DNA of 64,000 nt from a virus (taxonomy: Duplodnaviria; Caudoviricetes), in the IMG/VR virus record IMGVR_UViG_3300025676_000004, positions 70,817 through 134,816 of that record, one strand, 5' to 3'. Below, piece after piece: positions 1 through 64,000 of this stretch (position 1 is the first letter of the stretch; each line of letters starts with the position of its first letter). The notes below the pieces were generated by a model, which saw only the letters and a list, made by a program, of their open reading frames with translations, was not told the origin of the DNA and did not search any database. Position numbers and translations under genes: made by a program.

Positions 1-1
1 C

Positions 2-949
2 GATGTACCACGAAGACTTCTGAAGATGGAAGGGTTAGAGCAACAACTCAAGAGCAAGATAAAGAACATTGAAAAGAATGTGAAGTTCTATGAAGAGAAC
101 GATACTTGTCCATCTTGCAAGCAGGACATTCAGGAACACCACAAGGAATGTGTGTTCAAAGAAAAGGCGGAAGAGAAGAAAGAGGTAGAAGATGGTGTGG
201 GTGAGTTGATAGTGAATATGACGGACACAGGAAAACGATTAGATGACATCAACTCTATTCTGCAAACGGTCGATACTATACAAAGACAAATCAACGAGAA
301 GCAAAACCAAATTAATTCTTCCCTTCGTTACATTGGGAAGATGCAAAATAACATTGATGAAATAGTGGGTGAGGGTGTAGAGGTAGAAGAATCCAAAAAG
401 GAATTGAATGAATTGCTTGGCGAAGGTAAGGGGTATATTGGCGAACGCAAGGAACGAGTAGAGGACAAACACTACTACGAGATTGCAAGTGTATTGCTGA
501 AAGATACAGGCATCAAAGCAAAGATTATCAAACACTACCTGCCAATTATGAACAAACTCATCAACAAGTATCTTGGAGATATGGATTTCTTTTGCCAGTT
601 TGACTTGGATGAAAACTTTGATGAAACAATCAAGAGTCGCCATCGTGACGAGTTTTCATACTACAGTTTCAGTGAGGGCGAGCGTTTGCGGATTGACTTG
701 TCGTTGCTCTTGGCGTGGCGAGAGATTGCCAGATTGAAGAATAGTGTGAATTGTAACTTGCTGATATTAGACGAGGTATTCGATTCGTCATTAGATACAG
801 TTGGCACTGAGGAGTTTCTAAAACTTCTAACAACTTTCGGAAATCGTGCAAATATATTTGTAATCTCACATAAATCTGATATAATGACAGATAAGTTCAG
901 CAAACACATTGTGTTTGAGAAGAAGAATAATTTTAGTAGGATAAGATGA
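2..949 (+). CDS. gp46: Recombination endonuclease subunit, SbcC/Rad50-like (T4 gp46), 5'-truncated
   Basis: Zn-hook CPSC, ABC signature FSEGE, Walker B LLILDEVFD, H-loop ISH; frame open from window start. Confidence 0.93.
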   Translation, partial: DVPRRLLKMEGLEQQLKSKIKNIEKNVKFYEENDTCPSCKQDIQEHHKECVFKEKAEEKKEVEDGVGELIVNMTDTGKRLDDINSILQTVDTIQRQINEKQNQINSSLRYIGKMQNNIDEIVGEGVEVEESKKELNELLGEGKGYIGERKERVEDKHYYEIASVLLKDTGIKAKIIKHYLPIMNKLINKYLGDMDFFCQFDLDENFDETIKSRHRDEFSYYSFSEGERLRIDLSLLLAWREIARLKNSVNCNLLILDEVFDSSLDTVGTEEFLKLLTTFGNRANIFVISHKSDIMTDKFSKHIVFEKKNNFSRIR

Positions 950-959
950 AGAATATAAA

Positions 960-2570
960 ATGATGACAGATACAAAACACTTTTATGAACGCAACGATTA
1001 TGTAATCAATTCAGATTGCAATTGCCTGTTTGAAGATTTACTTGAGATGACACCCGATGAATTTCGTGAGTGGGTTATCAAGTTCCGCAAGACGGTGAAA
1101 GAATCTTGGGACAAGTATGGTTGTCCGCCACGAACAGGTAAGAATGAAGAAGGCATCATTGATGTGTTCAATAAGATTGCCGAATACCCCATCCACAAGT
1201 TTACACGCAGTGACGAGTTGTCCAATGTTCCAGACGATGTTATCATCAACAAGTCACGCATTGGCGGAGAAGCAGACCAATGGTTTAGTAATATGATGCA
1301 GACACGCATCAACTATACTGAGAAGGATATAGGATATTCCATCTACGATTTGTTTGTAGATGATAAACACTTGGAGAAGATGGTGAAGGGTGGTATGAGG
1401 CATTTTAGGCGTGATAGTTTGTATGAACACGCAAAGAGTGCATTCACTAATAACAAGAAATATGCCATTGTGTCCACAGCAGATGCACACGAATGGATGG
1501 AAGCATTCCATAACAACAAGAACATCTTCAAGGATTATGACTTTATGTTAGAAGAAGTCAAGAAACGAGAAGGTCTAAACAGTGGATACTTCCAAGTTGA
1601 ACAAGATGAAATTCTAAACTTGTCAATGGACGAAGTAAAAGAATACAAAGATAAGGGATGGTTGGAATATCGCCATCACTCTACATTTGATATAGACAAT
1701 ATGTCTAACGAGAAACGATACAATATTCGTGTGTATAAGAAGGGGAAGAAGATGTTCCCTAAAGCATTCGCCGCATATCGTATAGGTTTTATTCAACCTG
1801 CTGTCAATTTTCCACCAATGACTGCTAAATACCTATATGAAAGATTCACGGAAGATTTCAAAGACCAAGAGGTTATTAACATCTATGACCCGTCTAGTGG
1901 TTGGGGCGGCCGCATACTCGGTGCTATGGGTGTTAGGGATGATAGGACTATTCACTATATTGGGACTGACCCTAATCCTGACAATTTTATCGGGGATGGT
2001 GGTTACAGTAAGTATGCTTCTCTCGCTGATTTCTACAACACCAAAACTTATCGTGGAAACCCATTCTTTTCCGAAACTAATACTTATGATGTATACCAAG
2101 AAGGGTCGGAAGAAATTCAACACCACGAACGATTCCAAAAGTACAGAGGAAAACTCGACCTTATCTTTACTTCACCACCTTATTTCAACAGAGAGGCGTA
2201 TAGCGAAGACGAAAATCAGTCGTACAAAAAATACGGGTCGTCCTACGAATCTTGGAGAGATGGATTCCTCAGACCAACCCTAGAAACTTGTGCAGAGTAT
2301 CTAAAACCAAATAGATATTTGTTGTGGAATGTTGCAGATATTTTGGTCAGTGGAAAATACTTACCAATAGAACAAGATAGTATTGATATCCTTGAGTCGT
2401 GTGGTATGATGTATAAATACACATTGAAGATGGCATTAGAAGGAATGCCTGGGCAGAACAGAATGGGTGAAGACGGTAAACCTACTTGTAAAAATTACTG
2501 TATGATTGATGGAAAGTATATGAAATACGAACCAGTGTTTGTTTTCTATAAGAAAGAGAGAGATGAATGA
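960..2570 (+). CDS. Amino-type (N4-C/N6-A) DNA methyltransferase-like protein
   Basis: SAM-binding YDPSSGWGGR motif and catalytic FTSPPYF motif. Confidence 0.75.
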   Translation: MMTDTKHFYERNDYVINSDCNCLFEDLLEMTPDEFREWVIKFRKTVKESWDKYGCPPRTGKNEEGIIDVFNKIAEYPIHKFTRSDELSNVPDDVIINKSRIGGEADQWFSNMMQTRINYTEKDIGYSIYDLFVDDKHLEKMVKGGMRHFRRDSLYEHAKSAFTNNKKYAIVSTADAHEWMEAFHNNKNIFKDYDFMLEEVKKREGLNSGYFQVEQDEILNLSMDEVKEYKDKGWLEYRHHSTFDIDNMSNEKRYNIRVYKKGKKMFPKAFAAYRIGFIQPAVNFPPMTAKYLYERFTEDFKDQEVINIYDPSSGWGGRILGAMGVRDDRTIHYIGTDPNPDNFIGDGGYSKYASLADFYNTKTYRGNPFFSETNTYDVYQEGSEEIQHHERFQKYRGKLDLIFTSPPYFNREAYSEDENQSYKKYGSSYESWRDGFLRPTLETCAEYLKPNRYLLWNVADILVSGKYLPIEQDSIDILESCGMMYKYTLKMALEGMPGQNRMGEDGKPTCKNYCMIDGKYMKYEPVFVFYKKERDE

Positions 2571-18317: not shown

Positions 18318-18803
18318 ATGAATTACAACAACATCGTTGAAGATATTATAAAAGCATCAGAGTCAGCAAGAAAAATTGGTATTACTAATATTCTTCAACC
18401 TGGTCTTGTTAAAGAAATGATAATTGCGGATATACTAAACCACAAAATCATTCTTACCAAGCACGATGCTGATGCACATCACCCAAACGACCCAACAGAA
18501 AAATATGAATACCTCTCCTGTAAAGAAGGTGGCAGTGGTCAACTTGACAGAATGTTCAAGACACCAATAGATAAACGAGAAAAGTCTCTCGACAGAATCT
18601 CAAGAAACTCTATGATATACTATGCAGTATTCTACAAATCAAACCAAATTAAGTGTAAAGTAATATACAAAATAGAACCATCAATTATGCTTCAAGAAGC
18701 AAATAGGCAATTGGATGCAAGTTCAAATGATATTGCCCATTTAGGATTTTCCATTTCTTGGGTAAAAAAGAATGGTACGGTTGTATATGAAGATGTTGTT
18801 TAA
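18318..18803 (+). CDS. PvuII-like restriction-endonuclease-fold protein
   Basis: Colinear by eye with recalled R.PvuII: GITNILQ~GINDIFQ, DA...EYLS~DA...ELKS, IYKIEP~IYRLEP, WVKKNGTVVY~YVMEHGTKIY; similar length. Confidence 0.65.
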   Translation: MNYNNIVEDIIKASESARKIGITNILQPGLVKEMIIADILNHKIILTKHDADAHHPNDPTEKYEYLSCKEGGSGQLDRMFKTPIDKREKSLDRISRNSMIYYAVFYKSNQIKCKVIYKIEPSIMLQEANRQLDASSNDIAHLGFSISWVKKNGTVVYEDVV

Positions 18804-19674: not shown

Positions 19675-19698
19675 ATTTCCAGTAATATGTGGTATAAT
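19671..19698 (+). promoter_or_regulatory. Promoter TTGAAT-N16-TATAAT, ATG 6 nt downstream
   Basis: Hexamers with TG extension; ATG 19705 has no SD. Confidence 0.7.
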
Positions 19699-19704
19699 TT
19701 AAGT

Positions 19705-20151
19705 ATGAAAAACCCTATTCAGAAACATCATATTATCGCAACCGCAGTATGTGCCATTGTAGTATCCGCAAGTATTTTCACTGGTAAATGTGAAGCACAA
19801 ATTAGAAAGAAAAATCTGATGGATGCCATTTGTAATGTTGAATCAAACTGCGACTCGTCCAAAGTTGGCGACAACGGAGATTCGATTGGTGCATACCAAA
19901 TCCAATACGCATACTGGTTAGATGCAACAGAGTTTTCTGGTATCGGTGGAGAATACGAAGATGTTCTTGATGACGAATATGCACAACAGATTGTCCTTGC
20001 ATACTGGAACAGGTATGCTACAATGAAACGACTTGGACGAATCCCAACAGACGAAGACCGTGCGAGGATTCATAATGGTGGTCCTAACGGTTACAAGAAA
20101 ACAGCAACCGTAATATACTGGAACAATATCAAGAAAGAGTTGAATGACTGA
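19705..20151 (+). CDS. Invertebrate-type (destabilase-like) lysozyme with N-terminal hydrophobic signal
   Basis: AICNVES, G.YQI...YW.DA, ARIHNGGPNG. Confidence 0.8.
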   Translation: MKNPIQKHHIIATAVCAIVVSASIFTGKCEAQIRKKNLMDAICNVESNCDSSKVGDNGDSIGAYQIQYAYWLDATEFSGIGGEYEDVLDDEYAQQIVLAYWNRYATMKRLGRIPTDEDRARIHNGGPNGYKKTATVIYWNNIKKELND

Positions 20152-22714
20152 ATTTTATACAAATATCTCAATGAGGGGAAAGTATATTCTCTATCGGGGT
20201 GTGGATGAACTTGGAAATCGTATTTCACGCAAAGAAGAATTTCATCCAACGATGTTTGTCCCTTCACAATCTAAAACAGAATGGACAACTCTTGATGGTT
20301 TCTATGTAGAACCTGTACAACCAGGCGATATGACAGATACCAGAGAATTCATAAAGCAATACAAAGACATTCAAGGTTTCGACATTTACGGAAACACTGA
20401 TTATGTTTGTCAATATATCGCAGAGAATTATACAGGGGATGTTGAATACGACCTCGACAAAATTGTTGTTGCCAATATTGATATTGAAACTGAATCCGAA
20501 TATGGTTTCCCAGAGATTAACAATCCACTTGAAAGAGTGAATGCAATCTCCGTAGACTTCAACGGAAAGATGTATGTTCTTGGTCTTGGTGAGTTTACAT
20601 TACCAGAAGACGATGTACATTACCAAGAACAATTTTCAGAAGAAGAAGATTTGCTCAAAGCATTCCTTGATATTTGGGAACAAGAATCTCCCGATGTTGT
20701 TACAGGGTGGAATGTTCGATTCTTTGATATCCCCTATCTTGTCAATCGAATAACAAAGGTTCTTAGTGGAAAAGAAGCAAAACGACTTTCCCCTTGGAAG
20801 TTTTTCCGTGAAAGAACTGTAACCAAATTCAACAGAGAAAATGTTGTCTATGAGTTAAGTGGAATTGCAACACTCGACTATTACGAATTGTATCAGACAT
20901 TCACTTATGTCAATCAAGCATCCTATGCACTCAATCATATTGCAGAGGTGGAACTTGGCGAGAAGAAGTTAGATTACTCTGAATACGATTCAATGGCAGA
21001 TTTCTATCGGAACGACTTCCAGAAGTTTATGGAATACAATGTTCTCGATACTCGTTTGGTGATGCGATTAGAAGACAAGATGAAACTCTTGGAACTTGCA
21101 ATCACTCTTGGGTATTCTGCCAAACTCGGAAACTATATGGAAGTGTTCGGTCAGTTGAGAACTTGGGATTCAATCATCTACCACTTCCTACACGAACACA
21201 AAATTGCTATTCCACCGAAGAAGGGTGGACAAAGTAAGAATGAAAAGTATGCAGGTGCATATGTGAAAGAACCAATCACAGGTATGCATGATTGGGTTGT
21301 GTCGTTTGACCTTGCCAGTTTGTATCCTTCAATCATTCGTTGGTTGAATCTTTCACCAGAAACAAAGACAGATGATGGATTCAGAAAAATGTTTGGGGTT
21401 GATTCTATACTTAACAACAACGACATTGCGATGGAGATGATAAAGGAAAGAACAGATAAGGGATTGTGTGTTGCCGCCAATGGTACAACATACCATCAGA
21501 AGCATCAAGGTTTCCTCCCTGCACTCATGGAGAAGTTATACAACGAACGGAAGATGTATAAGGGGAAGATGATTGATACACAGAAGAAACGACAAAGCAT
21601 TCTGAGATCTGGTGCATTGGGTGGTGATGTGACAAAACTACTCCACGAAACAGACAAAGAAATAACCAAGTACCACAACTTTCAGTTGGTTCGGAAGATT
21701 CAGTTGAATAGTTGTTATGGTGCATTGGGAAATGAGTATGGACGATATTACGATTTAGATTTGGCAGAAGCAATCACACTAAGTGGTCAGTTGATTATTC
21801 AATGGATTGCAAATAAACTCAACGAATATCTAAACAAAACAATCGGAACAGAGGATTATGATTATGTTGTCGCAAGTGATACAGATAGTGTTTATCTCCG
21901 CCTTGGGAATCTTGTGGATAAACTTTGTCCTAACAGAAGAAAAGAACAGGTAGTAGAATTCCTCAACAAAGCATCAGAGGGAATCTTAGTTCCGTTCATT
22001 GACAAGCAATACACAGAATTGTCAGATATAATGGGTGCAATGCAACCTGATGTTATTATGATGGAACGAGAAGTCATCGCAGACAAAGCAGTATGGACTG
22101 CAAAGAAACGATACATGATGCGTGTGTTTGATTCGGAAGGTGTTCGTTATGACCCACCGAAGCAAAAGATTATGGGTATTGAAACAACACGAAGTTCTAC
22201 ACCACAGGTGGTTCGTGACTCTTTGAAAGAAGCAATCAATTTGATTCTAACTACCGATGAAGACTCGGTAATTGAATTCATTGAAGATTTCCGAGAGAAG
22301 TTTGAGAACTTTTCAATTGAAGAAATTGCATTCCCAAGAGGTGTGAATGGTATGGTGAAGTATGCAGACAGAGGAAGCATCTATCAGAAATCCACACCCA
22401 TTGCAGTCAAGGGAAGTTTGATTTACAACCACTATGTTAGTAAATTGAAACTTGGCAAAAAGCATCGAAAGATTGTGGACGGTGATAAAATCAAGTTTGT
22501 TCATTTGAAGAAACCGAATCCAGTTGGTGGAGTTGCGGGACAGGACCAAGTGATTGCATTCCCGAACGATTTACCAACCGAGTTTGGTCTTGATGAGTTT
22601 ATTGATTACGACCATCAATTTGATAAAGCATTTTTGAATCCATTGAAAACTATCTTGGAAAATATTGGATGGAACTGGGAACACATTTCAACATTGGAAG
22701 GTTTCTTTGGATGA
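20144..22714 (+). CDS. gp43: DNA polymerase, family B (gp43)
   Basis: DIET exonuclease motif, SFDLASLYPS, K..LNS.YG, SDTDS, KKRY, C-terminal clamp peptide LEGFF. Confidence 0.97.
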   Translation: MTEFYTNISMRGKYILYRGVDELGNRISRKEEFHPTMFVPSQSKTEWTTLDGFYVEPVQPGDMTDTREFIKQYKDIQGFDIYGNTDYVCQYIAENYTGDVEYDLDKIVVANIDIETESEYGFPEINNPLERVNAISVDFNGKMYVLGLGEFTLPEDDVHYQEQFSEEEDLLKAFLDIWEQESPDVVTGWNVRFFDIPYLVNRITKVLSGKEAKRLSPWKFFRERTVTKFNRENVVYELSGIATLDYYELYQTFTYVNQASYALNHIAEVELGEKKLDYSEYDSMADFYRNDFQKFMEYNVLDTRLVMRLEDKMKLLELAITLGYSAKLGNYMEVFGQLRTWDSIIYHFLHEHKIAIPPKKGGQSKNEKYAGAYVKEPITGMHDWVVSFDLASLYPSIIRWLNLSPETKTDDGFRKMFGVDSILNNNDIAMEMIKERTDKGLCVAANGTTYHQKHQGFLPALMEKLYNERKMYKGKMIDTQKKRQSILRSGALGGDVTKLLHETDKEITKYHNFQLVRKIQLNSCYGALGNEYGRYYDLDLAEAITLSGQLIIQWIANKLNEYLNKTIGTEDYDYVVASDTDSVYLRLGNLVDKLCPNRRKEQVVEFLNKASEGILVPFIDKQYTELSDIMGAMQPDVIMMEREVIADKAVWTAKKRYMMRVFDSEGVRYDPPKQKIMGIETTRSSTPQVVRDSLKEAINLILTTDEDSVIEFIEDFREKFENFSIEEIAFPRGVNGMVKYADRGSIYQKSTPIAVKGSLIYNHYVSKLKLGKKHRKIVDGDKIKFVHLKKPNPVGGVAGQDQVIAFPNDLPTEFGLDEFIDYDHQFDKAFLNPLKTILENIGWNWEHISTLEGFFG

Positions 22715-41336: not shown

Positions 41337-41842
41337 CACGAATTAAAGTGAACATACCCGAAGCAGTTTCGGGTGATTTTAGAATTGAGAAAATTAAAAC
41401 AGACCACTATTGTGGCAGTGATGAACCGTTAGATACCTATACGGTTCTTTTTAATCCACACCACAATATAATGCAAGACACCACAAGAGAATATAAAGAA
41501 CACGAACAGTTCCTAAAAGATGCACACGGTGATGTATTGGTCGCAGGTCTTGGTATTGGTATGATTCACCAATCACTCATCGACAATCCCAATGTAAAAT
41601 CTGTAACCATTGTAGAGAAGTATCAAGAAGTAATTGATATGGTATGGGAACACTGTCCGAAAGATGGAACTTTCAGATTAGTTCACGCAGACATCTATGA
41701 ATGGCAACCCGATTCCAAATGGGATATGGGGTGGTTTGATTCTTGGGTTGGTGAGAACGAACAAAACGAATATAAGAAATTAATGAAAGAACAATATGGT
41801 TCTTCTGTTTCTGATATTCGGTTTTGGAATAGGATGGCGTAA
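41333..41842 (+). CDS. SAM-dependent methyltransferase (spermidine-synthase-like fold)
   Basis: GDVLVAGLGIG, VTIVEK, AD, WFDSW. Confidence 0.7.
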   Translation: MTRIKVNIPEAVSGDFRIEKIKTDHYCGSDEPLDTYTVLFNPHHNIMQDTTREYKEHEQFLKDAHGDVLVAGLGIGMIHQSLIDNPNVKSVTIVEKYQEVIDMVWEHCPKDGTFRLVHADIYEWQPDSKWDMGWFDSWVGENEQNEYKKLMKEQYGSSVSDIRFWNRMA

Positions 41843-41915
41843 CACACCCGGCAGGACTCGAACCTGCGACTGCCGGATTAGAAATCCGATACTCTATCCA
41901 CTGAGTTACGGGTGC
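41843..41915 (-). tRNA. tRNA-Arg(TCT)
   Basis: Cloverleaf; GTTCGAGTC T-loop; anticodon loop TTTCTAA. Confidence 0.93.
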
Positions 41916-41925
41916 AGAATTCTAC

Positions 41926-42286: not shown

Positions 42287-42898
42287 TTAAATATCAATCT
42301 CTTGCCAATCTTTTTCTGCAACCAAATGCATTGACCAATTTCCGAATCCTGTTTGTGGGGATTCTACTGTTTCACCAACTTCTTCAAAGATGAATGGTCT
42401 ACCATTTACCATTGAAGTATAAATCGGTGAATCATATCCCATACGACCTTTCGCAAACACTTCTTTCTTTCCATATCCCAACCAATTGTTTTCACACTTA
42501 TTTGTACCAATCAGATATGCTTTACTGTCACCCTTGATTGCTCCCTTTGGAACAAACAAAATAGAATCTTGGTCAAACATCTCACCAAACTCTCGCAAAT
42601 CCTTTTCAAGATTTCCGTTGTCCACCAAGTCAACTACGAAGTAACTAATCTCAGTAACACTCTTGCCACCTTCTGGATATTTGCCGTGTAGTTTAGTAAC
42701 ACCATATCCCTTGCTCTTTAGTTTGGCAAGAAGTGACTTGTTTCGTTGTGCGTTTTGTTTATTGGTGAAAGGTGTTCCTTCACCACAATCTGGTCCTTTG
42801 CGGAACGCCGTCAATGCACCACAATTGTGTTCTTCGTTATGTTTCCATAAACGAGAGAGTGATGACTCGTTGATAAATTGTTTATATTGTTTACTCAT
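42287..42898 (-). CDS. Conserved T4-like hypothetical protein
   Basis: NESSLSRL, TAFR, G.Y.E, FDQDSILF. Confidence 0.75.
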   Translation of the reverse strand: MSKQYKQFINESSLSRLWKHNEEHNCGALTAFRKGPDCGEGTPFTNKQNAQRNKSLLAKLKSKGYGVTKLHGKYPEGGKSVTEISYFVVDLVDNGNLEKDLREFGEMFDQDSILFVPKGAIKGDSKAYLIGTNKCENNWLGYGKKEVFAKGRMGYDSPIYTSMVNGRPFIFEEVGETVESPQTGFGNWSMHLVAEKDWQEIDI

Positions 42899-43106: not shown

Positions 43107-43135
43107 ATGAATAAACTGTGCTATACTCTGCAAAA

Positions 43136-43209
43136 CGAGATGGAAGGGACTCGAACCCTCAACCTTCGGCTCGACAGGCCGATGTTCTAACCAATTGAAC
43201 TACCATCCC
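43136..43209 (-). tRNA. tRNA-Asp(GTC)
   Basis: Cloverleaf; anticodon loop CTGTCGA. Confidence 0.93.
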
Positions 43210-43215
43210 AAAAAA

Positions 43216-43580
43216 GACGGCAGGGAATCTTTTCTCTCTCCCAAAAAAAGACTCTACCTGCCGCCCACTTCATAAAATTAAATCGTTCCTAGTGAGGGCC
43301 ACTCACTCTAGTCCTAATGAATCCTACATCATCTTCACACCCGAAGGTGTCACCGAAGGCCTTGTAACGGAAGGAACGAATTATTTATACGGCGGTTTGG
43401 ATAAGCGTTGCGTTTTTCACTTCGTCCAATTAGTCCCTCTGTCTAGAACTTGGGATTACTGATTGTGCTTATGCACCACCGATTTGTTCAGTCACGGAGT
43501 TTGTACAGGTCATGACCCCTGCACTTTTTTATTCAATTATCAAAGAAATCCGATGATGGGGTTTCCCCCACCATCAGAGG
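43216..43580 (-). ncRNA. Candidate structured non-coding RNA(s) upstream of tRNA-Asp
   Basis: ORF-poor, GC-richer stretch with multiple stems, UUCG and GAAA loops, and an internal TATAAATA. Confidence 0.5.
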
Positions 43581-43602
43581 GGGCGTCAATTCAAAACTTG
43601 TA

Positions 43603-43854
43603 TCAAACAAGTCCTGCCTTGATTGCGAATGGGTTGTCAGTGTAACCACTAAAATCCATTCCATAACAAATAACACCGTTGTCAAGTGTGCGTGTGGAAA
43701 CTTCCCAATTTCCGTATGCTTCAACTTGACCTTTGATGTTGCTCATAGTTGCACGAAGATTCTTCACACCAAAACGGCTGTATGCTTGCTTAGGTGTGAT
43801 GTCATTACCACGGGCAAGGTGGTTGATAACTCGTTGTTTCTTTGTGTAGGTCAT
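43603..43854 (-). CDS. Winged-HTH DNA-binding protein
   Basis: KKQRVINHLARG..ITPKQA.SRFGVKNLRA. Confidence 0.7.
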   Translation of the reverse strand: MTYTKKQRVINHLARGNDITPKQAYSRFGVKNLRATMSNIKGQVEAYGNWEVSTRTLDNGVICYGMDFSGYTDNPFAIKAGLV

Positions 43855-43937
43855 AATAAAAACTCCAATATACGGTACTTCAAAATTCAAAGGTTGGATG
43901 TCACCGCAAGCATCTGTTCCCTTATTGTTATAATAGT

Positions 43938-43965
43938 ATTATAGACTATATTGAACGCCGTTCAA
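43938..43965 (-). promoter_or_regulatory. Promoter TTGAAC-N16-TATAAT
   Basis: Hexamers on the minus strand upstream of the HTH gene. Confidence 0.7.
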
Positions 43966-44183
43966 GTCTTTTTTTGTACGAATTCGTAAATTTTTTCTGC
44001 TTCGTTCCGAATGGCTTCTGTTGATGGAAATTCTGGTCTTTCCTTAACAGGGCATTCGCCTGTTAGTTGCTCATCAAATTGCCAGTTGTTCCAAACTTCG
44101 TGGTCTGAATAGAACTTGTCTAATAGACCTTGCTTTGCTTCTTGCCAAATTTCAAACCGTAAACTGTAAGGGTTGTCACTCAT
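43962..44183 (-). CDS. Conserved small T4-like protein
   Basis: NPYSLR.EI..EAK...FP....I..EAEKIYEFV; AAGGAG RBS. Confidence 0.7.
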   Translation of the reverse strand: MSDNPYSLRFEIWQEAKQGLLDKFYSDHEVWNNWQFDEQLTGECPVKERPEFPSTEAIRNEAEKIYEFVQKKT

Positions 44184-44216
44184 TTTATTTCTCCTTGTGT
44201 GTATGTGCGACTGTGT

Positions 44217-44264
44217 GTTGAGAACACCGTGTTCTCGTAAGTTGAGAACACCGTGTTCTCGTAA
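44217..44264. repeat. Tandem 24-bp repeat, each unit containing the palindrome GAGAACAC-C-GTGTTCTC
   Basis: GTTGAGAACACCGTGTTCTCGTAA x2. Confidence 0.95.
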
Positions 44265-44274
44265 TTATGTATAA

Positions 44275-44347
44275 TGGGTCGGGTGGGACTCGAACCCACG
44301 ACTCTCGCATTAAAAGTGCGATACTCTGCCGACTGAGTTACCGACCC
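44275..44347 (-). tRNA. tRNA-Lys(TTT)
   Basis: Cloverleaf; anticodon loop CTTTTAA. Confidence 0.93.
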
Positions 44348-44352
44348 GAAGG

Positions 44353-44733
44353 TCAGTGTTTCTTTATTATAGGTAACGGTGCTTCATAGTATATGTCGAG
44401 TCCAACTGCCTTTGCAGTATGCCATTCGGCCTTGGCGCCACGACTCTCTTCCCAACCCCACATCATATAAATTGCAGTACATTCTTCACAAATAACAACC
44501 AAGTCTCTCTTGAGTGCTTCACGCATAAATTCACGGTCTTCATAATTTGTTTCGGGGTCAAACTCTAAATGGCCGCCGGGGGGTTCTCCCTCTTCTCTAT
44601 CCATCTGAGCAGGATTGATAACTCGCCAACCTTGTTCTTCAAGAATTGTTGCTTGACGGTCGAACGCAGGGAAGTTTCCTTCCTCATATCCTCGCATCGG
44701 TCCTGCGATATAGATTGTTGGTTGTCTATTCAT
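44353..44733 (-). CDS. DUF4406 / nucleoside deoxyribosyltransferase-like protein
   Basis: IYIAGPMRG, NFPAF, INPA, GWEESRGAKAE. Confidence 0.82.
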   Translation of the reverse strand: MNRQPTIYIAGPMRGYEEGNFPAFDRQATILEEQGWRVINPAQMDREEGEPPGGHLEFDPETNYEDREFMREALKRDLVVICEECTAIYMMWGWEESRGAKAEWHTAKAVGLDIYYEAPLPIIKKH

Positions 44734-44936
44734 CCTGACTCTTCTTCAAATCGTGCTTTGATTTCCTGTTGAACATAATAATCTTCAAGGACTTCTCTAA
44801 GATTTTGATTTGCATCTCTCAGTTCATCTGAAAGTTTTTCAGCAATCCTCATATGTTTCCTATAATGTAACATACAGTTAAAAATATACAAGTTATAACC
44901 TATCAGAAAACAAATAATGATATATTCAAACATCAT
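44730..44936 (-). CDS. Small membrane-anchored protein
   Basis: N-terminal TM segment plus coiled coil. Confidence 0.55.
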   Translation of the reverse strand: MMFEYIIICFLIGYNLYIFNCMLHYRKHMRIAEKLSDELRDANQNLREVLEDYYVQQEIKARFEEESG

Positions 44937-45582
44937 TCCACTCTTTTAATATGACCTTCGCCTCGTTATCACCACGGGTCTTCAGTATCTCTTGACCCTT
45001 CAGACCAATCCAAGCATCGAATTCATTGGTAAACCTTGCACCACCGTTATCAATAACATCAGCACCCATAAACTCACCAGTGACAAAGCAGTATGCACAG
45101 TCAGAACCCATCGGTAAGATATACTTTGGGTCAAGCAATTTCTTACGAACCTCTTCAAGTTCTTCTTCAGACATATCTGGTTCTAATCGTTTTTCAATTG
45201 GGACCCAAGGAATATCGAAATCGCTCATTGCATATGCAAATGCAAGTGCCTCTGCACTCGCCCAAGATACATCATATTCTTCATACAGTTTATGAAACAA
45301 CACAGTCATATACTGTGCCTTCGCTTCTGTCATTTTTGATTCTTCCCAAGAAAAAGTATGGAATCCGTTTGGACTTGAAAATCCCCACATCTTCACTGTT
45401 CTTACACAGTCATCGCCAAACTTGACGAAGTAACCTTCTTCATCATGGATTTCTTCTGCCCAATCGCCGTCTTTGTCATATCCGTGTTCCATCATAACAG
45501 ACACACTGATATTTTTTTCTGTCAAGTAGGAATCTACTTCCTCTTGAGTCATTGAACATAGTCTTGATTTTTCTTTTTCCAT
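44926..45582 (-). CDS. Hypothetical protein (leaderless start)
   Basis: ORF; ATG 6 nt after the -10 box. Confidence 0.7.
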   Translation of the reverse strand: MEKEKSRLCSMTQEEVDSYLTEKNISVSVMMEHGYDKDGDWAEEIHDEEGYFVKFGDDCVRTVKMWGFSSPNGFHTFSWEESKMTEAKAQYMTVLFHKLYEEYDVSWASAEALAFAYAMSDFDIPWVPIEKRLEPDMSEEELEEVRKKLLDPKYILPMGSDCAYCFVTGEFMGADVIDNGGARFTNEFDAWIGLKGQEILKTRGDNEAKVILKEWNDV

Positions 45583-45588
45583 ACGCAT

Positions 45589-45616
45589 AGTATACCACAG
45601 ATAGAACGGAAGTCAA
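45589..45616 (-). promoter_or_regulatory. Promoter TTGACT-N16-TATACT
   Basis: Hexamers with TG extension. Confidence 0.75.
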
Positions 45617-45769
45617 CTACAAAGTGTATGCAAAATACATCACAGTCCATATGCCTAACATACAAACCACAGTGATAACGCCAATTGATATAAGTGCCAC
45701 TCTATATTTTCTTTGGCGTTCTCTTATTGCTTCTGGTGTTTCTTTTTTTTTGTAATAGATGTTTATCAC
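45617..45769 (-). CDS. Small membrane protein
   Basis: GTGA overlap with the guaC stop; C-terminal TM segment. Confidence 0.5.
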
Positions 45770-46809
45770 GAATCCCCAAATACCACATTCAACTGGCGAT
45801 TTACCCGAACGAATGTAGTACATTTCGGCAATTGCTTGATTGTCCTTGCACCTGTATAAGTACAGGCACTTCGCACCCCACCCATAATATCCTGTAGGGT
45901 ATTTTCTACAGCACCTCGACATGACACCTTCACTGTCTTACCCTCTGATGCTTTGTAGGTTGCGACACCACCACTATGCTTCTTCATAGCAGTATCACTA
46001 GACATACCATAGAACACCTTGTGAGACGCTCCTGAGTCGTCTGTAACGACTTCTCCTGCACATTCTTCGTGTCCTGCAAGCATTCCTCCCAACATAACGA
46101 AGTCTGCTCCTGCACCGAATGCTTTTGCAATGTCGCCAGGGCATTGACATCCACCATCCGCCATAATAAATCCGTTTAGTCCATGAGCGGCATCTGCACA
46201 TTCCATCACGGCGGATAATTGCGGGAAACCGACTCCCGCTTTTTTGCGAGTTGTGCAAACAGAACCTGGTCCGATGCCAATCTTTACAATGTCTGCACCC
46301 GCAAGGATAAGTGCTTCAGTCATTTCTGCTGTAACTACATTCCCTGCAATAATAATTTTCTCTGGCCACTTGTCCTTGACATCTTTTACAAAATCAACAA
46401 ATCGTTGAGTGTAACCGTTTGCAACATCCAAGCAGAAGAATGGTTTATGTTTGGCGAATTCAGAAAGATTACTCGCACCATCATTAGTGAGCAATTGCAT
46501 CTCTGCATCTTCATTCATTCCAAACGAAATTGCCAAGTTGTTATCTCCAAACGAATCACCATAATTCAAATGACTTATATGTTTACTTAAACAAGTCAAC
46601 ATACTATGCTTGGACAATGCTTCGCCCATTTCAAGTGTTCCGATTGTATCCATATTGGCGGCGACAATTGGAACACCAATCCATTCTTTGCCATTTTTGA
46701 ATATAAAGTTTCGGTATAAATCTACTTGCTTGCGGGAAGTTAGTGTTGACCTCTTTGGTCTAATAAGAACATCTGCATAATCAAGTTTCACATCATCTAA
46801 AATTTTCAT
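45766..46809 (-). CDS. guaC: GMP reductase
   Basis: [46 protein letters not shown]. Confidence 0.95.
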
Positions 46810-46824
46810 TAATCAATCTCCAAG

Positions 46825-46897
46825 TGGGACGAGTGGGACTTGAACCCACGAAAATAGAGGTATAAACTCTACTGCTGATACCATCCGCTTCCGTCCC
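46825..46897 (-). tRNA. tRNA-Ile(TAT)
   Basis: Acceptor stem GGGACGG/TCGTCCC, anticodon loop TTTATAC, GTTCAAGTC; weak D-arm. Confidence 0.8.
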
Positions 46898-46913
46898 ATA
46901 TAATACACACATT

Positions 46914-47174
46914 CTACAGTGAAGTAGATTTAATGTCAATAGTAATCTTCTTATTACTTACATGACCATTTTCATTCTTGTCAAGGTAATTGGACTTCTG
47001 CCTGTCTTCATCAAAACCAAGACGATAACCAACTTTACTGACACCGTGCATTTCCATTTTCATACACTGATGTCTATCATCGTGAAACAACCATTCCATT
47101 AGATGTTGAGAAGTATGAATTGCCTTCTCTTCATCTGTTCCAAGTGGAATGTCAATATGTAATCTATATTGCAT
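46914..47174 (-). CDS. Hypothetical protein
   Basis: AAGGAG RBS before MQYRLHIDIPLG. Confidence 0.7.
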   Translation of the reverse strand: MQYRLHIDIPLGTDEEKAIHTSQHLMEWLFHDDRHQCMKMEMHGVSKVGYRLGFDEDRQKSNYLDKNENGHVSNKKITIDIKSTSL

Positions 47175-47193
47175 AACTAACTCCTTTGTAACA

Positions 47194-47266
47194 TACGAGT
47201 GGTGGGACTTGAACCCACACTTGAGGGATTTTAAGTCCCTTGCCTCTGCCATTGGGCTACACTCGC
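47194..47266 (-). tRNA. tRNA-Leu(TAA), short variable loop
   Basis: Cloverleaf; anticodon loop CTTAAAA; 73 nt. Confidence 0.9.
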
Positions 47267-47285
47267 TTAACTCTCTCAGGAAAAA

Positions 47286-47359
47286 TGACCCCAAGGAGAT
47301 TTGAACTCCTGTTTTCAGGATGAAAACCTGATGTCCTAACCGAACTAGACGATGGGGTC
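47286..47359 (-). tRNA. tRNA-Glu(TTC)
   Basis: Cloverleaf; anticodon loop TTTTCAT. Confidence 0.92.
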
Positions 47360-54474: not shown

Positions 54475-54480
54475 ACTCAT

Positions 54481-54508
54481 ATTATACCTCAGAGGCGACC
54501 GTGGTCAA
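54481..54508 (-). promoter_or_regulatory. Promoter TTGACC-N16-TATAAT
   Basis: Hexamers; ATG 6 nt downstream. Confidence 0.8.
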
Positions 54509-55008: not shown

Positions 55009-55237
55009 AGTTGTTCGTGAATCCTTGTTTGATTAGGGAGTTCCAAAATGTTCTTGCACGGTCTGTCATGTAGTTCCCGCCGGCCATGGCAGAATCATAT
55101 GTCCGCCACCCGTGTCCGTCATCGATTAATACCACAACGCATCCGTCTTGCGGTTTAAACATGTACTGGCATCCCGTGTCATGATTGATTAGACAGAAGT
55201 CTTTTGAACGGAGAACTGAACTACTCAAAATGGACAC
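54995..55237 (-). CDS. Hypothetical protein, AR..W family
   Basis: MTDRARTFWNSLIKQGF. Confidence 0.6.
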   Translation of the reverse strand: MSILSSSVLRSKDFCLINHDTGCQYMFKPQDGCVVVLIDDGHGWRTYDSAMAGGNYMTDRARTFWNSLIKQGFTNNYEIE

Positions 55238-56463
55238 GCATTACCTTCTGCTGAAGCAGGCACATCAGAGGCTTCACCCTCATCAGTTCCTACCTGCATA
55301 TCCGCATCCACTTTGGAATACAGATTCAAGAATGCTTCTTTAGTGTCATCATCGAATCGAGCGAGACACATAGCAATTGCTTTGGACTTATCGCCAAAGA
55401 TTGCGTTAGCATTCACGATATCCACCAGACGGCGGGTCGAGATGATTTCATCGACAGCACCCTCATAGAAGGACTTGCGAATAATTTCCGCCCACTTTGT
55501 AAGGTGGTCAGCAAAATCAACATCATCACAACCGGCCTTCACGAGAATCTTCTTCTCAGTGGCCTTAGTTGCATAAGGTTGCTCAAGGGTAATCGGGAAG
55601 CGGTCGAGCATTGCTTCGTTCATAATCCCAGTACCGACAAATCGTCCGTCATCCGAACCTTTACCCTTGGTATTGGCAGTAGCGAACACAGTGAAACCGT
55701 CAGCGGGCGTAACCCATTGACCGATTTTCTTGAGGAATACACCCTTGCCCTCTAGGACAGGTTGCAGACACATCAAGTTAGCAGAACCGAGGTCGATTTC
55801 ATCGAGCAACAGTACGCCACCAGATTTCATTGCTGAAACCACGGGACCGTCCATCCAGACGGTGTTACCGTTGATTAGGCGGAATCCACCCAACAGGTCA
55901 TCTTCGTCAGTCTGACGAGTAATATTGACACGATAGCATTCTCGTTTCAATTTCGCACAAACCTGCTCTACCATGAGAGTTTTGCCGTTACCAGAAAGAC
56001 CAGTCACGAAAACATTGTAGTTTCGGCGACTTCGGACGATTTTCTCGACATCACTAAAGTGACCCCAAGCGACATAACCGTCAAATCGTGGCGGCACAAG
56101 TGTTTGTCGTTCACCGCCGGTCATACCCATTGCAAGCAATGCAGTATTGTCAACCGCTTCAACCGCACCCTGTACAGGACCAGTCTGTATATCGACATTT
56201 TCCTTTACGACAGGGGCGGGAGCAGGTGATACCGTCTTCGGAACGGATGCGACAACAGAACCGTCAATTTCAGACAGTTCAGGACAATCATAAAGACCAC
56301 GACCGACTTTGCGGGCAGAGTCTTGAGTCAACCAAGATGGAGGACACGCATACGCACCAGATGTGGTACACGCATCGACAATATCTTGGCGACTTACAGG
56401 TGAAGTGCAACCGTTCGCCTTCAAGGCGGACAAAAGTTGCGTTTGTCGTAAATTTAATTTCAT
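55225..56463 (-). CDS. MoxR/CobS-like AAA+ ATPase
   Basis: GLSGNGKT, LLLDEID, ATANTKGKG, LDRF, ISTRRL. Confidence 0.9.
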   Translation of the reverse strand: MKLNLRQTQLLSALKANGCTSPVSRQDIVDACTTSGAYACPPSWLTQDSARKVGRGLYDCPELSEIDGSVVASVPKTVSPAPAPVVKENVDIQTGPVQGAVEAVDNTALLAMGMTGGERQTLVPPRFDGYVAWGHFSDVEKIVRSRRNYNVFVTGLSGNGKTLMVEQVCAKLKRECYRVNITRQTDEDDLLGGFRLINGNTVWMDGPVVSAMKSGGVLLLDEIDLGSANLMCLQPVLEGKGVFLKKIGQWVTPADGFTVFATANTKGKGSDDGRFVGTGIMNEAMLDRFPITLEQPYATKATEKKILVKAGCDDVDFADHLTKWAEIIRKSFYEGAVDEIISTRRLVDIVNANAIFGDKSKAIAMCLARFDDDTKEAFLNLYSKVDADMQVGTDEGEASDVPASAEGNACPF

Positions 56464-56515
56464 TTGAATCTCCGAAGGATTGCGGGAAGAGAGTGGGAAA
56501 AACCCCACTCGTGAA

Positions 56516-56943
56516 TGTATATTGTACCATAATACGGCGCACTTCCTACCCCTATTATAGAAGATTTCCAAAGAATTTTGCGTAAATGTAGTAATGGCAG
56601 GCACTTACGGGGCGAAAACTAAATTATTTTTATTTGTTCGGGTTCTGTTAGGATGTGGATAACTTGTGGATAACTTTTGGTGTGCTGTCCTATAAATAGG
56701 AACGCCCGTGCGTTGCAAACGGCATACCAAAATCAACAAAATCGTCAGAAAATGACTAAAAAGTCGAAATAAATGACAAAAAGTGGATTTTTAGACGAAA
56801 AACAAGGATTTTATTGAAATAAATCTTGTTAGGGTATTGTTAGGTGACGACATAGTGTCAGTCTATTTTCAACAAAATCATCTATTTTCACCCGATTCGC
56901 ACCCTTGCCCCCATATGGGGTACGATTTATGGTACAATATACA
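56516..56943. promoter_or_regulatory. Divergent control region with the identical 17-bp element TTATGGTACAATATACA facing each way
   Basis: 56516-56532 (-) and 56927-56943 (+); extended -10 TGGTACAAT. Confidence 0.75.
56654..56673 (-). promoter_or_regulatory. Two tandem perfect DnaA boxes (TTATCCACA)
   Basis: TGTGGATAA at 56654-56662 and 56665-56673. Confidence 0.7.
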
Positions 56944-56946
56944 CTT

Positions 56947-59289
56947 ATGAGTCAGAAACCCACTATCAAAGTCAACACTGCCAGCAAGGATATCCTTGCT
57001 CGTGCTATGGCGATGGAAGACATTAATGTTATCCATCGTGCTGATGCTCCATCTGCATATTTCGATACTAAGAATCGCACCCTGTGCCTGCCCGTCTGGA
57101 AAGAGATGGACAGTTCTGTATATGATATGCTCGTAGGTCACGAAGTGTCCCATGCTCTGCATACGCCTGCTGAAGGTTGGCAAGACTTTGTTGGTAAGGG
57201 TAAACTTTCGGGTATGCGACATATGTTCTTGAACATTGTCGAAGATGCTCGCATTGAGCGATTGATTAAGGATAAATTTCCTGGCCTTCGCCGTGACTTT
57301 GCTAACGCATATAAATCATTGAATGCTCAAGACTTGTTCGAGTTGAAAAACCGAACGATTAACCTTGAAACGCCATTAATTGACCGCTTGAATCTTGAGT
57401 TTAAACTCGGTTTGTTCGGTTTGCTTGATGTTCCCTTCTCTGACGAAGAGAAGCAATATGTTACTCGTATGAGCGAAACCGAAACCTTTGAGGAAGTCAT
57501 CGTACTTGCTGAAGATTTGTTCGGTAAGCACCAAGATGAGAATCCTGAACCAGAGCAAGATGAAAATGGCGAATCGCAATCTGCATCGGGTGACGGTGAC
57601 GAGGGTGACGATTCTGGTGCTGAATCTGGTGCTGACCAGCAAGACTCGGACGACCAAGACGGTGGTTCTGGTAGTTCTGCTATGGGCGAAGAGGAATCTG
57701 ATGAAGATTCTGATTCACAGGGTGCCGGTGACGGCGAATCCAATGGTGATGATGCTGGCGATTCGATGGAAGATGATACCGATGATGGTGAATCTGCTGA
57801 ATCGAGTCAAACCGGCGAATCTTCTGACGGTGAAGGCGATGATGACCTTTCATATGAGGCATATGAAAATGATGTCAATTCTGCCGGTTCGACCCAACGC
57901 AACTATGAATCCAATATTGAACAATTCCGTGATGATGAGGCTTCTTCGCCTACTTATCACTCGCTTCCTGATATGCATCTTGACAATATCATCGTGACCC
58001 CTAAGCAAATTGCTGAAGAGTGGGATATGCACGAAGCAACAGATAATTTTGAACGATACTCAAGGGACCACGCCGAAGCAATCGCCGATTTGACTTCGTT
58101 CTTGAACGGTTCAAAAGCAGTTGTGAATCATATGGTTCAACAGTTCCAAATGAAACAAGCCGCTGATTCGGATAAACGAACGAACATCGCCAAAACTGGT
58201 ATTCTTGATACCACTACGATGATTAATTATCGTTGGAGCGAAGACATCTTCCTCAAGAATGAGGTACATAGTGACGGTAAGAGTCACGGTATCGTTATAT
58301 TCCTTGACTGGTCTGGTTCAATGTCTAGTATCCTGAATGATACTGCTGAACAACTCATGATTCTCACTGAGTTCTGTCAAAAAGTCAATATTCCTTTTGA
58401 GGTTTATGCTTTTTCAAGTAACCGATTCATCCCCGGCCTTTCAAGAGTCGACCGATGGTCAGAAGAATACCAGAGCATAGTAGATTCAGCAATTGGCGAA
58501 CAGTACACGGGAACTGATGAAGATTCTTTGAAGCCTCACGAATTTAGTCTATTCAACTTCTTGAGCAGTTCAATGAAATCAAATGAATATAAAAAAGCAC
58601 TTCGCCGATTCTGGTTGACCGTGCAAGCAAACAACTACGGTGGCCGTCAACGCCACTCAATCAGTTATCCTCGCCAGTTCGGTTTGGGAAGTACGCCACT
58701 GAATGAAGCAATTCTCTGTGCGATTGATATCATTCCTGCATTCAAAGACGCCCATAACCTTCAAATCGTGAACACTGTGTTCTTGACTGACGGTGACGGA
58801 CACGGAATGATGTATAACTCACGATACAACAACGGTAAAACAATCTTGCGTGATAATAAGACCAAGAAGACTGTGACACTGAACAGTGACCTTGGACATG
58901 ATTCTGAAACCTTCGCATTCCTTGAAATCCTCAAGCAACGCACTGGATGCAACTTGATTGGTATCCGTCTTCACGATAGCAACCATATCAAGAACCTTCG
59001 TTACCGATTCTTCGGTACAACTGGTGTTTCGGATTATGAAATGCGTGATAAAGAGTTCCAAAGTGCTGTTCAGTCTTATAAGAAGCACAATTGCTTTACT
59101 CTCGAAAACACTGCTTACGACCTCTTCGTAGTAGTTAAGGGAAATCTTGAAGTCGTCACTGATGCTCTCGAAAACCTTGATGATGATGCGAGTTACGCCA
59201 AAATCAAGAACGCATTCATGAAGGGTAACAACTCCAAGAAGACTAGTCGAGTCATCTCTTCTAAGATTATTGATGTAATCGCCGCCTGA
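56947..59289 (+). CDS. CobT-like protein: HEXXH peptidase domain, acidic linker, VWA domain
   Basis: GHEVSHALH, NIVEDARIE, D/E/S/G-rich linker, MIDAS DWSGSM, TPL, LTDG. Confidence 0.88.
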   Translation: MSQKPTIKVNTASKDILARAMAMEDINVIHRADAPSAYFDTKNRTLCLPVWKEMDSSVYDMLVGHEVSHALHTPAEGWQDFVGKGKLSGMRHMFLNIVEDARIERLIKDKFPGLRRDFANAYKSLNAQDLFELKNRTINLETPLIDRLNLEFKLGLFGLLDVPFSDEEKQYVTRMSETETFEEVIVLAEDLFGKHQDENPEPEQDENGESQSASGDGDEGDDSGAESGADQQDSDDQDGGSGSSAMGEEESDEDSDSQGAGDGESNGDDAGDSMEDDTDDGESAESSQTGESSDGEGDDDLSYEAYENDVNSAGSTQRNYESNIEQFRDDEASSPTYHSLPDMHLDNIIVTPKQIAEEWDMHEATDNFERYSRDHAEAIADLTSFLNGSKAVVNHMVQQFQMKQAADSDKRTNIAKTGILDTTTMINYRWSEDIFLKNEVHSDGKSHGIVIFLDWSGSMSSILNDTAEQLMILTEFCQKVNIPFEVYAFSSNRFIPGLSRVDRWSEEYQSIVDSAIGEQYTGTDEDSLKPHEFSLFNFLSSSMKSNEYKKALRRFWLTVQANNYGGRQRHSISYPRQFGLGSTPLNEAILCAIDIIPAFKDAHNLQIVNTVFLTDGDGHGMMYNSRYNNGKTILRDNKTKKTVTLNSDLGHDSETFAFLEILKQRTGCNLIGIRLHDSNHIKNLRYRFFGTTGVSDYEMRDKEFQSAVQSYKKHNCFTLENTAYDLFVVVKGNLEVVTDALENLDDDASYAKIKNAFMKGNNSKKTSRVISSKIIDVIAA

Positions 59290-61258: not shown

Positions 61259-61263
61259 TAGAT

Positions 61264-63219: not shown

Positions 63220-63226
63220 AAATAAT

Positions 63227-63754
63227 ATGAAATCATTTAAAGAATATATCACAGAGGTATTTGATAATCCATACAAGTGGCGCGGTGGTGGTGTTGCAAA
63301 AGGTTCAATAACACCAAACAATGATGGTATACCAGAAGATTATGTATTCAAGACATCCGATGGTGGTCTGATTGAATTGACTGCAAACCATTTTTGGATG
63401 CGTGCCGGCGAAAAAACATCATTTATGTCAGTAGCAAAAGAAGGTCATGCCGTTGGTATTGAATTTGTCAAAAGAAAATATAAGGGAACTACTAAGGATA
63501 GAAGCACCTATGGTATGACAGGCGAAGGTGATGCAATGAGAATTATGGCAACCGTGTTGGACATAATCGAGGCTATTATAAAGAAGCACGAACCCGCCAT
63601 GCTATATTTTAGTGGTGATAAAGATGACAAAGAAAAAGGTGGTCGTGTGGGTGCATATAAAGCAATAATAAAAAGGTTCGCAGGCAAGGCGGGATATGAA
63701 TCTGTAACAAAGGAATATTCAAATAAAGTAAGTTTCCAGTTGGTGAAGAAATGA
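63227..63754 (+). CDS. Capsid-targeted hypothetical protein
   Basis: MKSFKEYITE; TGEGDAMRIMATV. Confidence 0.65.
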   Translation: MKSFKEYITEVFDNPYKWRGGGVAKGSITPNNDGIPEDYVFKTSDGGLIELTANHFWMRAGEKTSFMSVAKEGHAVGIEFVKRKYKGTTKDRSTYGMTGEGDAMRIMATVLDIIEAIIKKHEPAMLYFSGDKDDKEKGGRVGAYKAIIKRFAGKAGYESVTKEYSNKVSFQLVKK

Positions 63755-64000
63755 AATCATTTAATGAGTATATCGACTGGGCAAAAGAAACAGGATACCT
63801 AAAACAAACAAGTATCACTGGTTCTGGTGGTAAGGGCGGTAGCACCGAATATGTCAAGGGCAACCGAGCAATAATTCACCACACTGACAAGAATAATCAA
63901 AAGTGGCAATCAATGATTCCTCCTGTCCAATATAAGCCTGCAAAGGATATGAGAACATTAAAGAAATATGTCCTGCAATTCAGGAAGGATGTTCTTGCAA
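63751..64000 (+). CDS. Hypothetical protein, 3'-truncated
   Basis: MKSFNEYID, open to the window end. Confidence 0.6.
   Translation, partial: MKSFNEYIDWAKETGYLKQTSITGSGGKGGSTEYVKGNRAIIHHTDKNNQKWQSMIPPVQYKPAKDMRTLKKYVLQFRKDVLA

Follow-up and report, generated by a model that had tools for sequence, protein, structure and literature searches.

Near-complete loss of short palindromic words from the genome of an uncultured marine T4-like phage

This study concerns a 64,000 nt stretch of DNA (the window), which forms the right-hand end of a linear IMG/VR virus record of 134,816 bp (IMGVR_UViG_3300025676_000004, estimated to be 75% complete), and the short palindromic words that have been purged from it. 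Within the window AGCT and ACGT do not occur at all, GATC is found once and CGCG four times; CATG, CCGG, GCGC, the RGCY words and many 5- and 6-bp words are depleted over the same interval (positions 1..64000, with no strand assigned), and the whole contig behaves in the same way. We think it likely that this represents restriction-site avoidance, driven mainly by type II enzymes of the host. Such avoidance is in itself a textbook phenomenon, of which this phage is an extreme case. The contig comes from an uncultured marine T4-like myovirus; it encodes a gp43 polymerase, UvsX, a gp41-type helicase, ribonucleotide reductase, ThyX, a clamp loader, RNase H and gp59. The gene of the T4-type DNA polymerase (gp43; 20144..22714, + strand) served as the marker for retrieving 80 related IMG/VR contigs and for building a tree.

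Purged tetranucleotides and silent codon choice

An earlier note on this DNA, made from the letters and a list of open reading frames (ORFs), had found by eye no AGCT and a single GATC, at 21606. Both counts proved exact, where composition predicts 221 copies of each; with a second-order Markov model as background the predictions become 52 AGCT and 245 GATC, against 0 and 1 observed. The GC content had been put at ~35% and is in fact 37.9% for the window (37% for the genome). Further words not listed at the time are depleted in the window, namely ACGT (0, 221 expected), CGCG (4, 83 expected) and CATG (45, 221 expected), and ACGT, AGCT, GATC, CGCG and CATG are the five most depleted of all 256 tetranucleotides under the Markov model, every one of them a palindrome. 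Other 4-bp palindromes had been described as present; this holds for GGCC, TCGA, GTAC and CCGG, yet each lies below its compositional expectation (28 of 83, 156 of 221, 142 of 221 and 21 of 83, respectively). Over the whole contig the counts are 0 for AGCT, 0 for ACGT, 1 for GATC and 5 for CGCG, where composition predicts 456, 456, 456 and 160, and CATG occurs 98 times instead of 456. Words of the same composition are spared: the contig holds 802 copies of TGCA with 456 expected, and 79 of ATATAT while TATATA is absent. The 6.4 kb of intergenic DNA are equally free of AGCT, ACGT and GATC, with 20 of each expected.

How the words were removed can be read from the codons. As a null we shuffled synonymous codons within each of the 150 ORFs (96% of the contig), which keeps the proteins and the codon usage of every gene. 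The expectations obtained in this way are 217±12 for AGCT, 231±11 for ACGT, 363±13 for GATC, 78±8 for CGCG and 333±12 for CATG, far above the 0, 0, 1, 5 and 94 copies observed, so that the purge must work through a context-dependent silent choice of codons. The GAC-CCN spelling noticed earlier at Asp-Pro junctions is one instance of a general rule: Asp is written GAC in all 236 cases where the next codon starts with C, as opposed to 23% elsewhere. Likewise, none of the 372 Ile codons that follow a codon ending in G is ATC, and none of the 552 Ala codons that follow one ending in A is GCT; after NGA, Ser is spelled AGY in 51 of 52 cases. Codons ending in A are used for every Lys, Glu and Gln that precedes CTN (318/318), and codons ending in T for every Tyr, His, Asn and Asp that precedes Val (421/421). 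The fully lost words are missing equally across all three reading frames. Removal of the purged tetramers needs no amino-acid change and is almost entirely synonymous.

The tRNA genes are also free of these words. From the TAACTCAG...GAGT D-stems of tRNA-Arg(TCT) (41842..41916, − strand) and tRNA-Lys(TTT) (44275..44347, − strand) the earlier note had concluded that the purge reaches into the tRNAs by way of a compensatory pair change; the first part of this is borne out while the second is not, as the stem is a common natural variant. The tRNA-Arg has an ACTC/GAGT stem (A10-U25) and lacks AGCT, and the tRNA-Lys has the same stem. No fully purged word occurs in the four remaining tRNA genes (Asp, Ile, Leu and Glu; 43135..47359, − strand), whose T-loops read TTCGAGT, TTCAAGT or TTCAAAT and not TTCGAAT. 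All six tRNAs are thus without AGCT, ACGT, GATC, CGCG and TTCGAA. Among 553 control tRNAs from 80 unrelated viral loci, 40% contain AGCT and 160 (29%) lack all five words, so that six out of six would be expected by chance with a probability of roughly 0.29^6 = 6e-4. Among five long relatives of the contig (G001 to G005; the contig itself is G000), G002 and G004 contain AGCT and their tRNA-Lys has the canonical TAGCTCAG...GAGC, and the tRNA-Arg of G004 combines the same ACTC/GAGT stem with an AGCT within the D-loop. However, 12 of the 72 control viral tRNA-Lys(UUU) carry TAACTCA...GAGT (A10-U25) in contigs that are not AGCT-free, and for this reason the stem is not independent evidence of the purge. 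It does not prove that a compensatory change arose anew, the allele being a common one that the lineage kept or recruited.

The sole GATC of the contig (21606..21609, + strand) lies in AGA-TCT (Arg488-Ser489) of the DNA polymerase gene. We compared public Logan contigs from runs of three studies over window positions 19000-24000, where at least half of the sampled words occur in five of the eight runs listed. Position 21606 is an A in two runs, one from the same study and one from another, giving AAA-TCT (Lys-Ser), and a G in a third run; the two more distant relatives that were aligned likewise encode Lys-Ser at this site. The finding of A in two runs makes the last GATC a segregating G/A (Lys/Arg) variant in marine populations. 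That the word profile is a sequencing or assembly artefact is scarcely conceivable, since this coverage by Logan contigs from three studies is matched by the same profile in contigs from many independent metagenomes, and AGCT is at 0 in each of G001, G003 and G005.

Age, turnover and wider spectrum of the avoided words

The 80 relatives encode polymerases 43-83% identical to that of the phage. Taking a word as purged when it is at or below 5% of expectation, AGCT is purged in 50 of them, ACGT in 21, GATC in 18, GGCC in 8, CGCG in 7, TTAA in 4 and TCGA in 2; CCGG is purged in 13 of the 53 that are testable for it, and CATG, GTAC and CTAG in one each of the 80. These combine to 27 distinct purge profiles, which cluster on the polymerase tree but require several gains or losses, and an 11-member clade without any purged tetramer nests among AGCT-free lineages. 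The long relatives illustrate the range. The closest, G005 (polymerase 83% identical over the part present on its contig), has lost AGCT, ACGT and GATC altogether and has normal CATG (444 copies, 393 expected); G003 has no GATC or CGCG and 203 ACGT; in G001 only AGCT is purged and GATC is over-represented; G002 and G004 have no purged tetramer, with several 6-mers at 0. From these patterns it follows that the AGCT loss is old or recurrent and that the other losses are quick to turn over; the purge is old and lineage-specific. Separately, in some relatives (loci L020, L023-L027 and L050-L056) CCGG is wholly absent and GATC is about twofold over-represented (e.g. 172 copies with 73 expected), the opposite of its behaviour in this phage.

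Could such losses arise without any nuclease, from a mutational bias, a codon-pair or translational preference, or a constraint on DNA structure? Some depleted words are indeed not restriction-like, among them AGCC/GGCT and GGAGG/CCTCC (0.24 and 0.11 of expectation). But the fully lost words are palindromes that are missing in every frame, in intergenic DNA and in tRNA genes, words of equal composition such as TGCA and ATATAT are untouched, and close relatives with the same replication machinery have shed different words. We therefore regard an explanation of this type as highly improbable.

Beyond the four tetramers, 20 or more other words have disappeared or become strongly depleted. They were scored over the whole contig against the same codon null, using words independent of the four tetramers. 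Of the 6-bp palindromes, TTCGAA (57 expected), CTGCAG (32) and GTGCAC (14) are absent, single copies are left of CTTAAG and GTTAAC (25 expected each) and of GGTACC (22), AGTACT is found twice (29 expected), and CCATGG, ACCGGT and GTCGAC have at most two copies each. TATATA is absent from the contig, with 128 copies predicted by composition, 60 by the Markov model and 50 by the codon null; its loss is private to this phage, as G005 has 62, and we know of no enzyme for this word. The non-palindromic 6-mers GGAACC/GGTTCC (35 expected, and also close to 0 in G005 and G003) and AGCAGC/GCTGCT (27 expected) are both at 0, while one copy each remains of the 5-mers CGACG/CGTCG (83 expected) and CCGGA/TCCGG (91 expected). 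The type IIS-like words GCAGC, GACGC and GTCTC stand at ~0.16 of the codon null. The RGCY family is depleted as a whole, from AGCT at 0 through AGCC/GGCT to GGCC at 0.66 of expectation.

Other departures from the codon null go in different directions. GGAGG/CCTCC is reduced on the coding strand (16 copies, 147 expected), which probably reflects avoidance of Shine-Dalgarno-like sequences within genes rather than restriction. GCCGC/GCGGC is over-represented 2.7-fold (109 copies, 40 expected), GGCGCC 3.3-fold and CGGCCG 4.1-fold, and GGCG/CGCC are the most over-represented tetramers of the window. A rule by which GC and CG steps would be tolerated only after T fails here, given that CGCC/GGCG and GCCG occur frequently and that most CG steps show no effect.

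CATG is being lost now in this lineage. Its leftover sites are clustered, with a variance-to-mean ratio of 3. One fibre-like gene of 1512 aa (G000:21180-25718, corresponding to L384:1180-5718 and outside the window) contains 12 CATG where 16 are expected, as opposed to ~0.2 of expectation for the genome, and lacks AGCT, ACGT and GATC altogether; a CATG-tolerant relative may have been its recent source.

The copies of CCGG and GCGC that survive follow a simple rule of context. Over the whole contig, 37 of 39 CCGG and 40 of 40 GCGC (21 and 18 of these survivors, respectively, lie in the window) are flanked by a 5′ G or a 3′ C, compared to 34% by chance. With these flanks the words are not depleted relative to the codon null (GCCGG/CCGGC 42 copies vs 55, GGCGC/GCGCC 53 vs 44), and with other flanks they are reduced to 0-0.09. 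The rule extends to relatives: it is followed by GCGC in G001 (56/56) and largely in G005 (41/49), and by both CCGG (29/29) and GCGC (17/17) in G003. Among 55 loci with a homolog of a putative phage methylase, P0121, 94% of the survivors obey it wherever the word is depleted; in random viral loci it does not hold (45-49%).

P0121 (536 aa; 960..2570, + strand) has a DNA methyltransferase-like C-terminal half with a motif I (DPSSGWGG) and a motif IV (SPPY). The protein scores 24.2 bits against Pfam PF01555, below the cut-off of 26.7, and a six-frame search gives 27.9 bits; PADLOC reports MTase_II with an E-value of 3e-10, NCBIfam only a weak HemK match. There are distant matches to phage genes annotated as N4-cytosine or DNA methylases, and the protein is conserved in the clade (85% identity in G005). 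From these motifs and matches it is probably a DNA methylase (N4/N6). The flank rule may reflect a sparse modification of cytosines at GCC/GGC, which P0121 might conceivably introduce and which would shield the sites that carry it. Two observations count against a simple link of this kind, namely that AGCC/GGCT is depleted in spite of containing GCC, and that P0121 homologs also occur in lineages without the rule. If the link is true, the genome sequence itself records the target of the phage's own methylase; in any case the rule is a cheaply testable lead pointing to an uncharacterised phage DNA methylase.

An orphan nuclease gene and other possible anti-restriction functions

The window also encodes P0001 (161 aa; 18318..18803, + strand), an orphan homolog of type II restriction endonucleases with a predicted PvuII-like fold. 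Its AlphaFold2 model has a mean local confidence (pLDDT) of 90.6, and the ten best Foldseek matches are all R.PvuII along the whole length (E ~1e-7, TM 0.60-0.62). At the sequence level no match was found in Pfam (including PF09225), NCBIfam, PADLOC or the PDB, nor did the family profile match PF09225 or the PDB, although one homolog, P0118, has a precomputed PF09225 match. The family comprises more than 1,200 proteins, 60-68% identical to P0001, in metagenome-assembled genomes of many phyla, and P0001 retains all 55 of its invariant residues. These phyla include Chloroflexota, Planctomycetota, Verrucomicrobiota, Acidobacteriota and bacteria of the candidate phyla radiation (CPR), with 57-68% identity across phyla. 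The P0001 homolog is immediately preceded by an N6_N4 DNA methylase gene on the same strand in 78 of 80 bacterial loci, which is the layout of a type II restriction-modification (R-M) pair, and the family is thus a widespread uncharacterised type II R-M family made up of a PvuII-fold endonuclease and an N6_N4 methylase. The partner methylase is closest to M.MboIIA and not to M.PvuII, and its DGPY motif looks adenine-type. A tblastn search of the phage contig found no homolog of this partner, and no methylase gene adjoins P0001, which we take from the model and the bacterial context to be the predicted endonuclease of such a system, carried without its methylase.

The gene was acquired horizontally and has been scrubbed of sites: it contains none of AGCT, ACGT, GATC, CGCG, CATG and CCGG, while 80 out of 80 bacterial homolog genes hold at least one of them, with a mean of ~7 per gene. 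A search of the 80 related loci, some of them from close relatives in which the syntenic region is covered, and of the five long relatives found no homolog. As these relatives share the purge, the loss of AGCT, ACGT and GATC must be older than the gene. Homologs with 76% identity, P0002 and P0003, are encoded on Tara contigs; copies of P0001 or P0002 were not found in IMG/VR, nor in cultured phages or plasmids, and a metagenome scan with P0001 returned only homologs of at most 68% identity. In bacterial P0001-carrier loci of 1.1-1.25 Mb, the depletion of palindromes gave no clear outlier (CTCGAG 0.40, AAGCTT 0.47, TATATA 0.52), and CAGCTG was not among the 14 lowest palindromes by Markov ratio.

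The presence of P0001 raises the possibility that the phage itself encodes the selecting agent, i.e. restriction-type nucleases without methylases that are directed at host or rival DNA and whose sites the phage's own genome has shed. An active orphan enzyme needs a site-free genome, and this genome lacks dozens of palindromes; P0001 is intact, with the invariant residues of its family, a PvuII-fold model and an R-M context in bacteria, and the private TATATA purge means that at least one of the losses is as young as P0001 could be. Nevertheless, we find this explanation unlikely. P0001 is missing from relatives that all share the AGCT purge, and many of them also the ACGT or GATC purges; and a single nuclease cannot account for more than 20 avoided words. 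Among ~70 ORFs scanned no other restriction-type nuclease was recognised, the remaining finds being a SegE-type GIY-YIG endonuclease (window 33497-33928, +) and an HNH endonuclease (G000:276-794, +), both probably homing-type and neither found in the five long relatives. The genes unique to the AGCT-free long contigs are just a divergent gp53, a DUF5710 protein and one small unknown protein, a comparison of little power with contigs that are 65-78% complete.

If host enzymes are what is avoided, P0001 is most readily understood as a passenger, tolerable for a genome free of sites. It is also possible, though we hold it only as a tentative idea and a rather doubtful one, that a genome stripped beforehand took up P0001 without its methylase as a means to shred the DNA of the host or of co-infecting rival phages, with immunity resting on the absence of sites. 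In this case the TATATA purge would be a candidate footprint of P0001, and the gene would bear on how self and non-self can be told apart through missing sites.

A further gene (42287..42898, − strand) encodes a protein of the S-adenosylmethionine (SAM) lyase family (Pfam PF23780, 44.2 bits with a gathering cut-off of 28), homologs of which are annotated as hypothetical in cultured myoviruses. As far as the family assignment goes, the protein could act as a second defence against restriction, one directed at SAM-dependent systems. If active, it would cover types I and III and BREX, which are outside the reach of site avoidance; surveys observe no avoidance for SAM-dependent systems (PMC6286503). 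Genes for C5 methylases, Dam-type methylases, TET/JBP and the ThyA/dCMP-hydroxymethylase family were not found on the contig, which covers an estimated 75% of the genome. These absences are in line with cyanomyoviruses, for which there is no evidence of hydroxymethylcytosine or glucosylated DNA (PMC2984593).

The closest cultured phages are Synechococcus cyanomyoviruses, with a polymerase identity of only 49%. A psbA-family (photosystem) gene was not found on the contig and, given its completeness, this is weak evidence against a cyanobacterial host. Public runs containing the sequence come from marine or seawater metagenomes. A Phycisphaerae host, as had been suggested, is without support: the sole pointer to Planctomycetota is P0001, whose family spans many phyla. 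One region of the window (54200-59200) has 45% GC compared to 37% in the genome and encodes an AAA ATPase and a peptidase; of the contig's 39 CCGG and 98 CATG sites it contains 9 and 11, respectively, and it has no AGCT, ACGT or GATC.

Selective agents and comparison with known systems

The original proposal of selection by site-specific nucleases, of host or phage, is supported, as no other reading accommodates all of the evidence: the five most depleted tetranucleotides are palindromes, the loss is silent, depends on codon context and extends to intergenic DNA and tRNA genes, it is old and lineage-specific, P0001 has been scrubbed of sites, and the sole GATC is segregating. We infer that these nucleases are mostly host-encoded, since more than 20 avoided words and profiles that differ between close relatives make host enzymes the more economical agent. 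According to this scheme, phage DNA that carries no known gene for wholesale hypermodification on the contig would be exposed to many type II endonucleases in the infected cells. Genome copies with a recognition word would be cut, mutations that remove the word would be fixed and, over time, AGCT, ACGT, GATC and CGCG would have been eliminated together with a dozen or more 6-bp palindromes and a handful of 5-bp words, with CATG and others still on their way out. Codons would be picked according to their neighbours so that no purged word spans a codon boundary, and RNA genes would be kept in word-free variants. The presence of a SAM-lyase-family gene fits a phage under restriction pressure.

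Several points weigh against this interpretation. AGCT is purged in relatives that span 33-48% GC and reach down to ~51% polymerase identity; such uniformity exceeds what would be expected from strain-variable host systems and leaves room for a conserved factor on the phage side. The host enzymes that would do the cutting are deduced from their presumed effect. The strongly avoided words include some that do not look like ordinary type II sites (TATATA, CGACG/CGTCG, CCGGA/TCCGG and AGCC/GGCT). The phage could methylate its genome by means of the putative methylase P0121, which makes the assumption of unmodified DNA insecure, and the contig has a completeness of only about 75%.

If restriction by host enzymes is the cause, the present data show to what extent it can shape the genome of a large phage in the open ocean, an environment in which most hosts, and with them their defence systems, have yet to be cultured. 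The avoided words then amount to a record of the nucleases met by the phage lineage, which could be used for host prediction by matching avoidance profiles to the restriction-enzyme repertoires of candidate hosts. With 27 profiles in 80 contigs and a GATC that is still segregating, the arms race appears to be fast and ongoing.

Site avoidance has classic examples in Staphylococcus phage K, whose genome is free of GATC, and in Bacillus phages without the sites of their hosts. Avoidance has been documented mainly for orthodox type II sites in non-temperate double-stranded DNA phages, and roughly one viral genome in ten shows complete or near-complete elimination of a site (Rusinov et al. 2018, PMC6286503). 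Our phage resembles the lytic phages of that survey in the complete or nearly complete loss of short palindromic type II words by synonymous changes in a non-temperate phage. It differs from them in that four tetramers have been entirely or nearly eliminated over 135 kb (~890 copies expected under the codon null) in addition to more than 20 further words, and in that the AGCT loss is common to a large uncultured marine clade while other words vary between close relatives.

The accessory genes have known counterparts as well. The gene 0.3 product of phage T3, a SAM lyase, is an anti-restriction enzyme that degrades SAM, and it shares its family with the putative SAM lyase encoded in the window. 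R.PvuII, a type IIP enzyme that cuts CAGCTG, is like the P0001 model in fold along the whole length, and the PvuII system is similar in that the bacterial P0001 homologs adjoin a methylase of the PF01555 family, to which M.PvuII also belongs. The differences are an identity of only ~17%, the lack of a PF09225 or PDB sequence match, the M.MboIIA-like partner in bacteria and the orphan state in the phage. Finally, chloroviruses encode R-M systems that degrade host DNA, and a virus-borne type II-like endonuclease is common to both cases. Chloroviruses, however, shield their genomes by means of cognate methylases. Here such a methylase is absent, and any self-protection against P0001 would therefore have to come from the absence of its sites.

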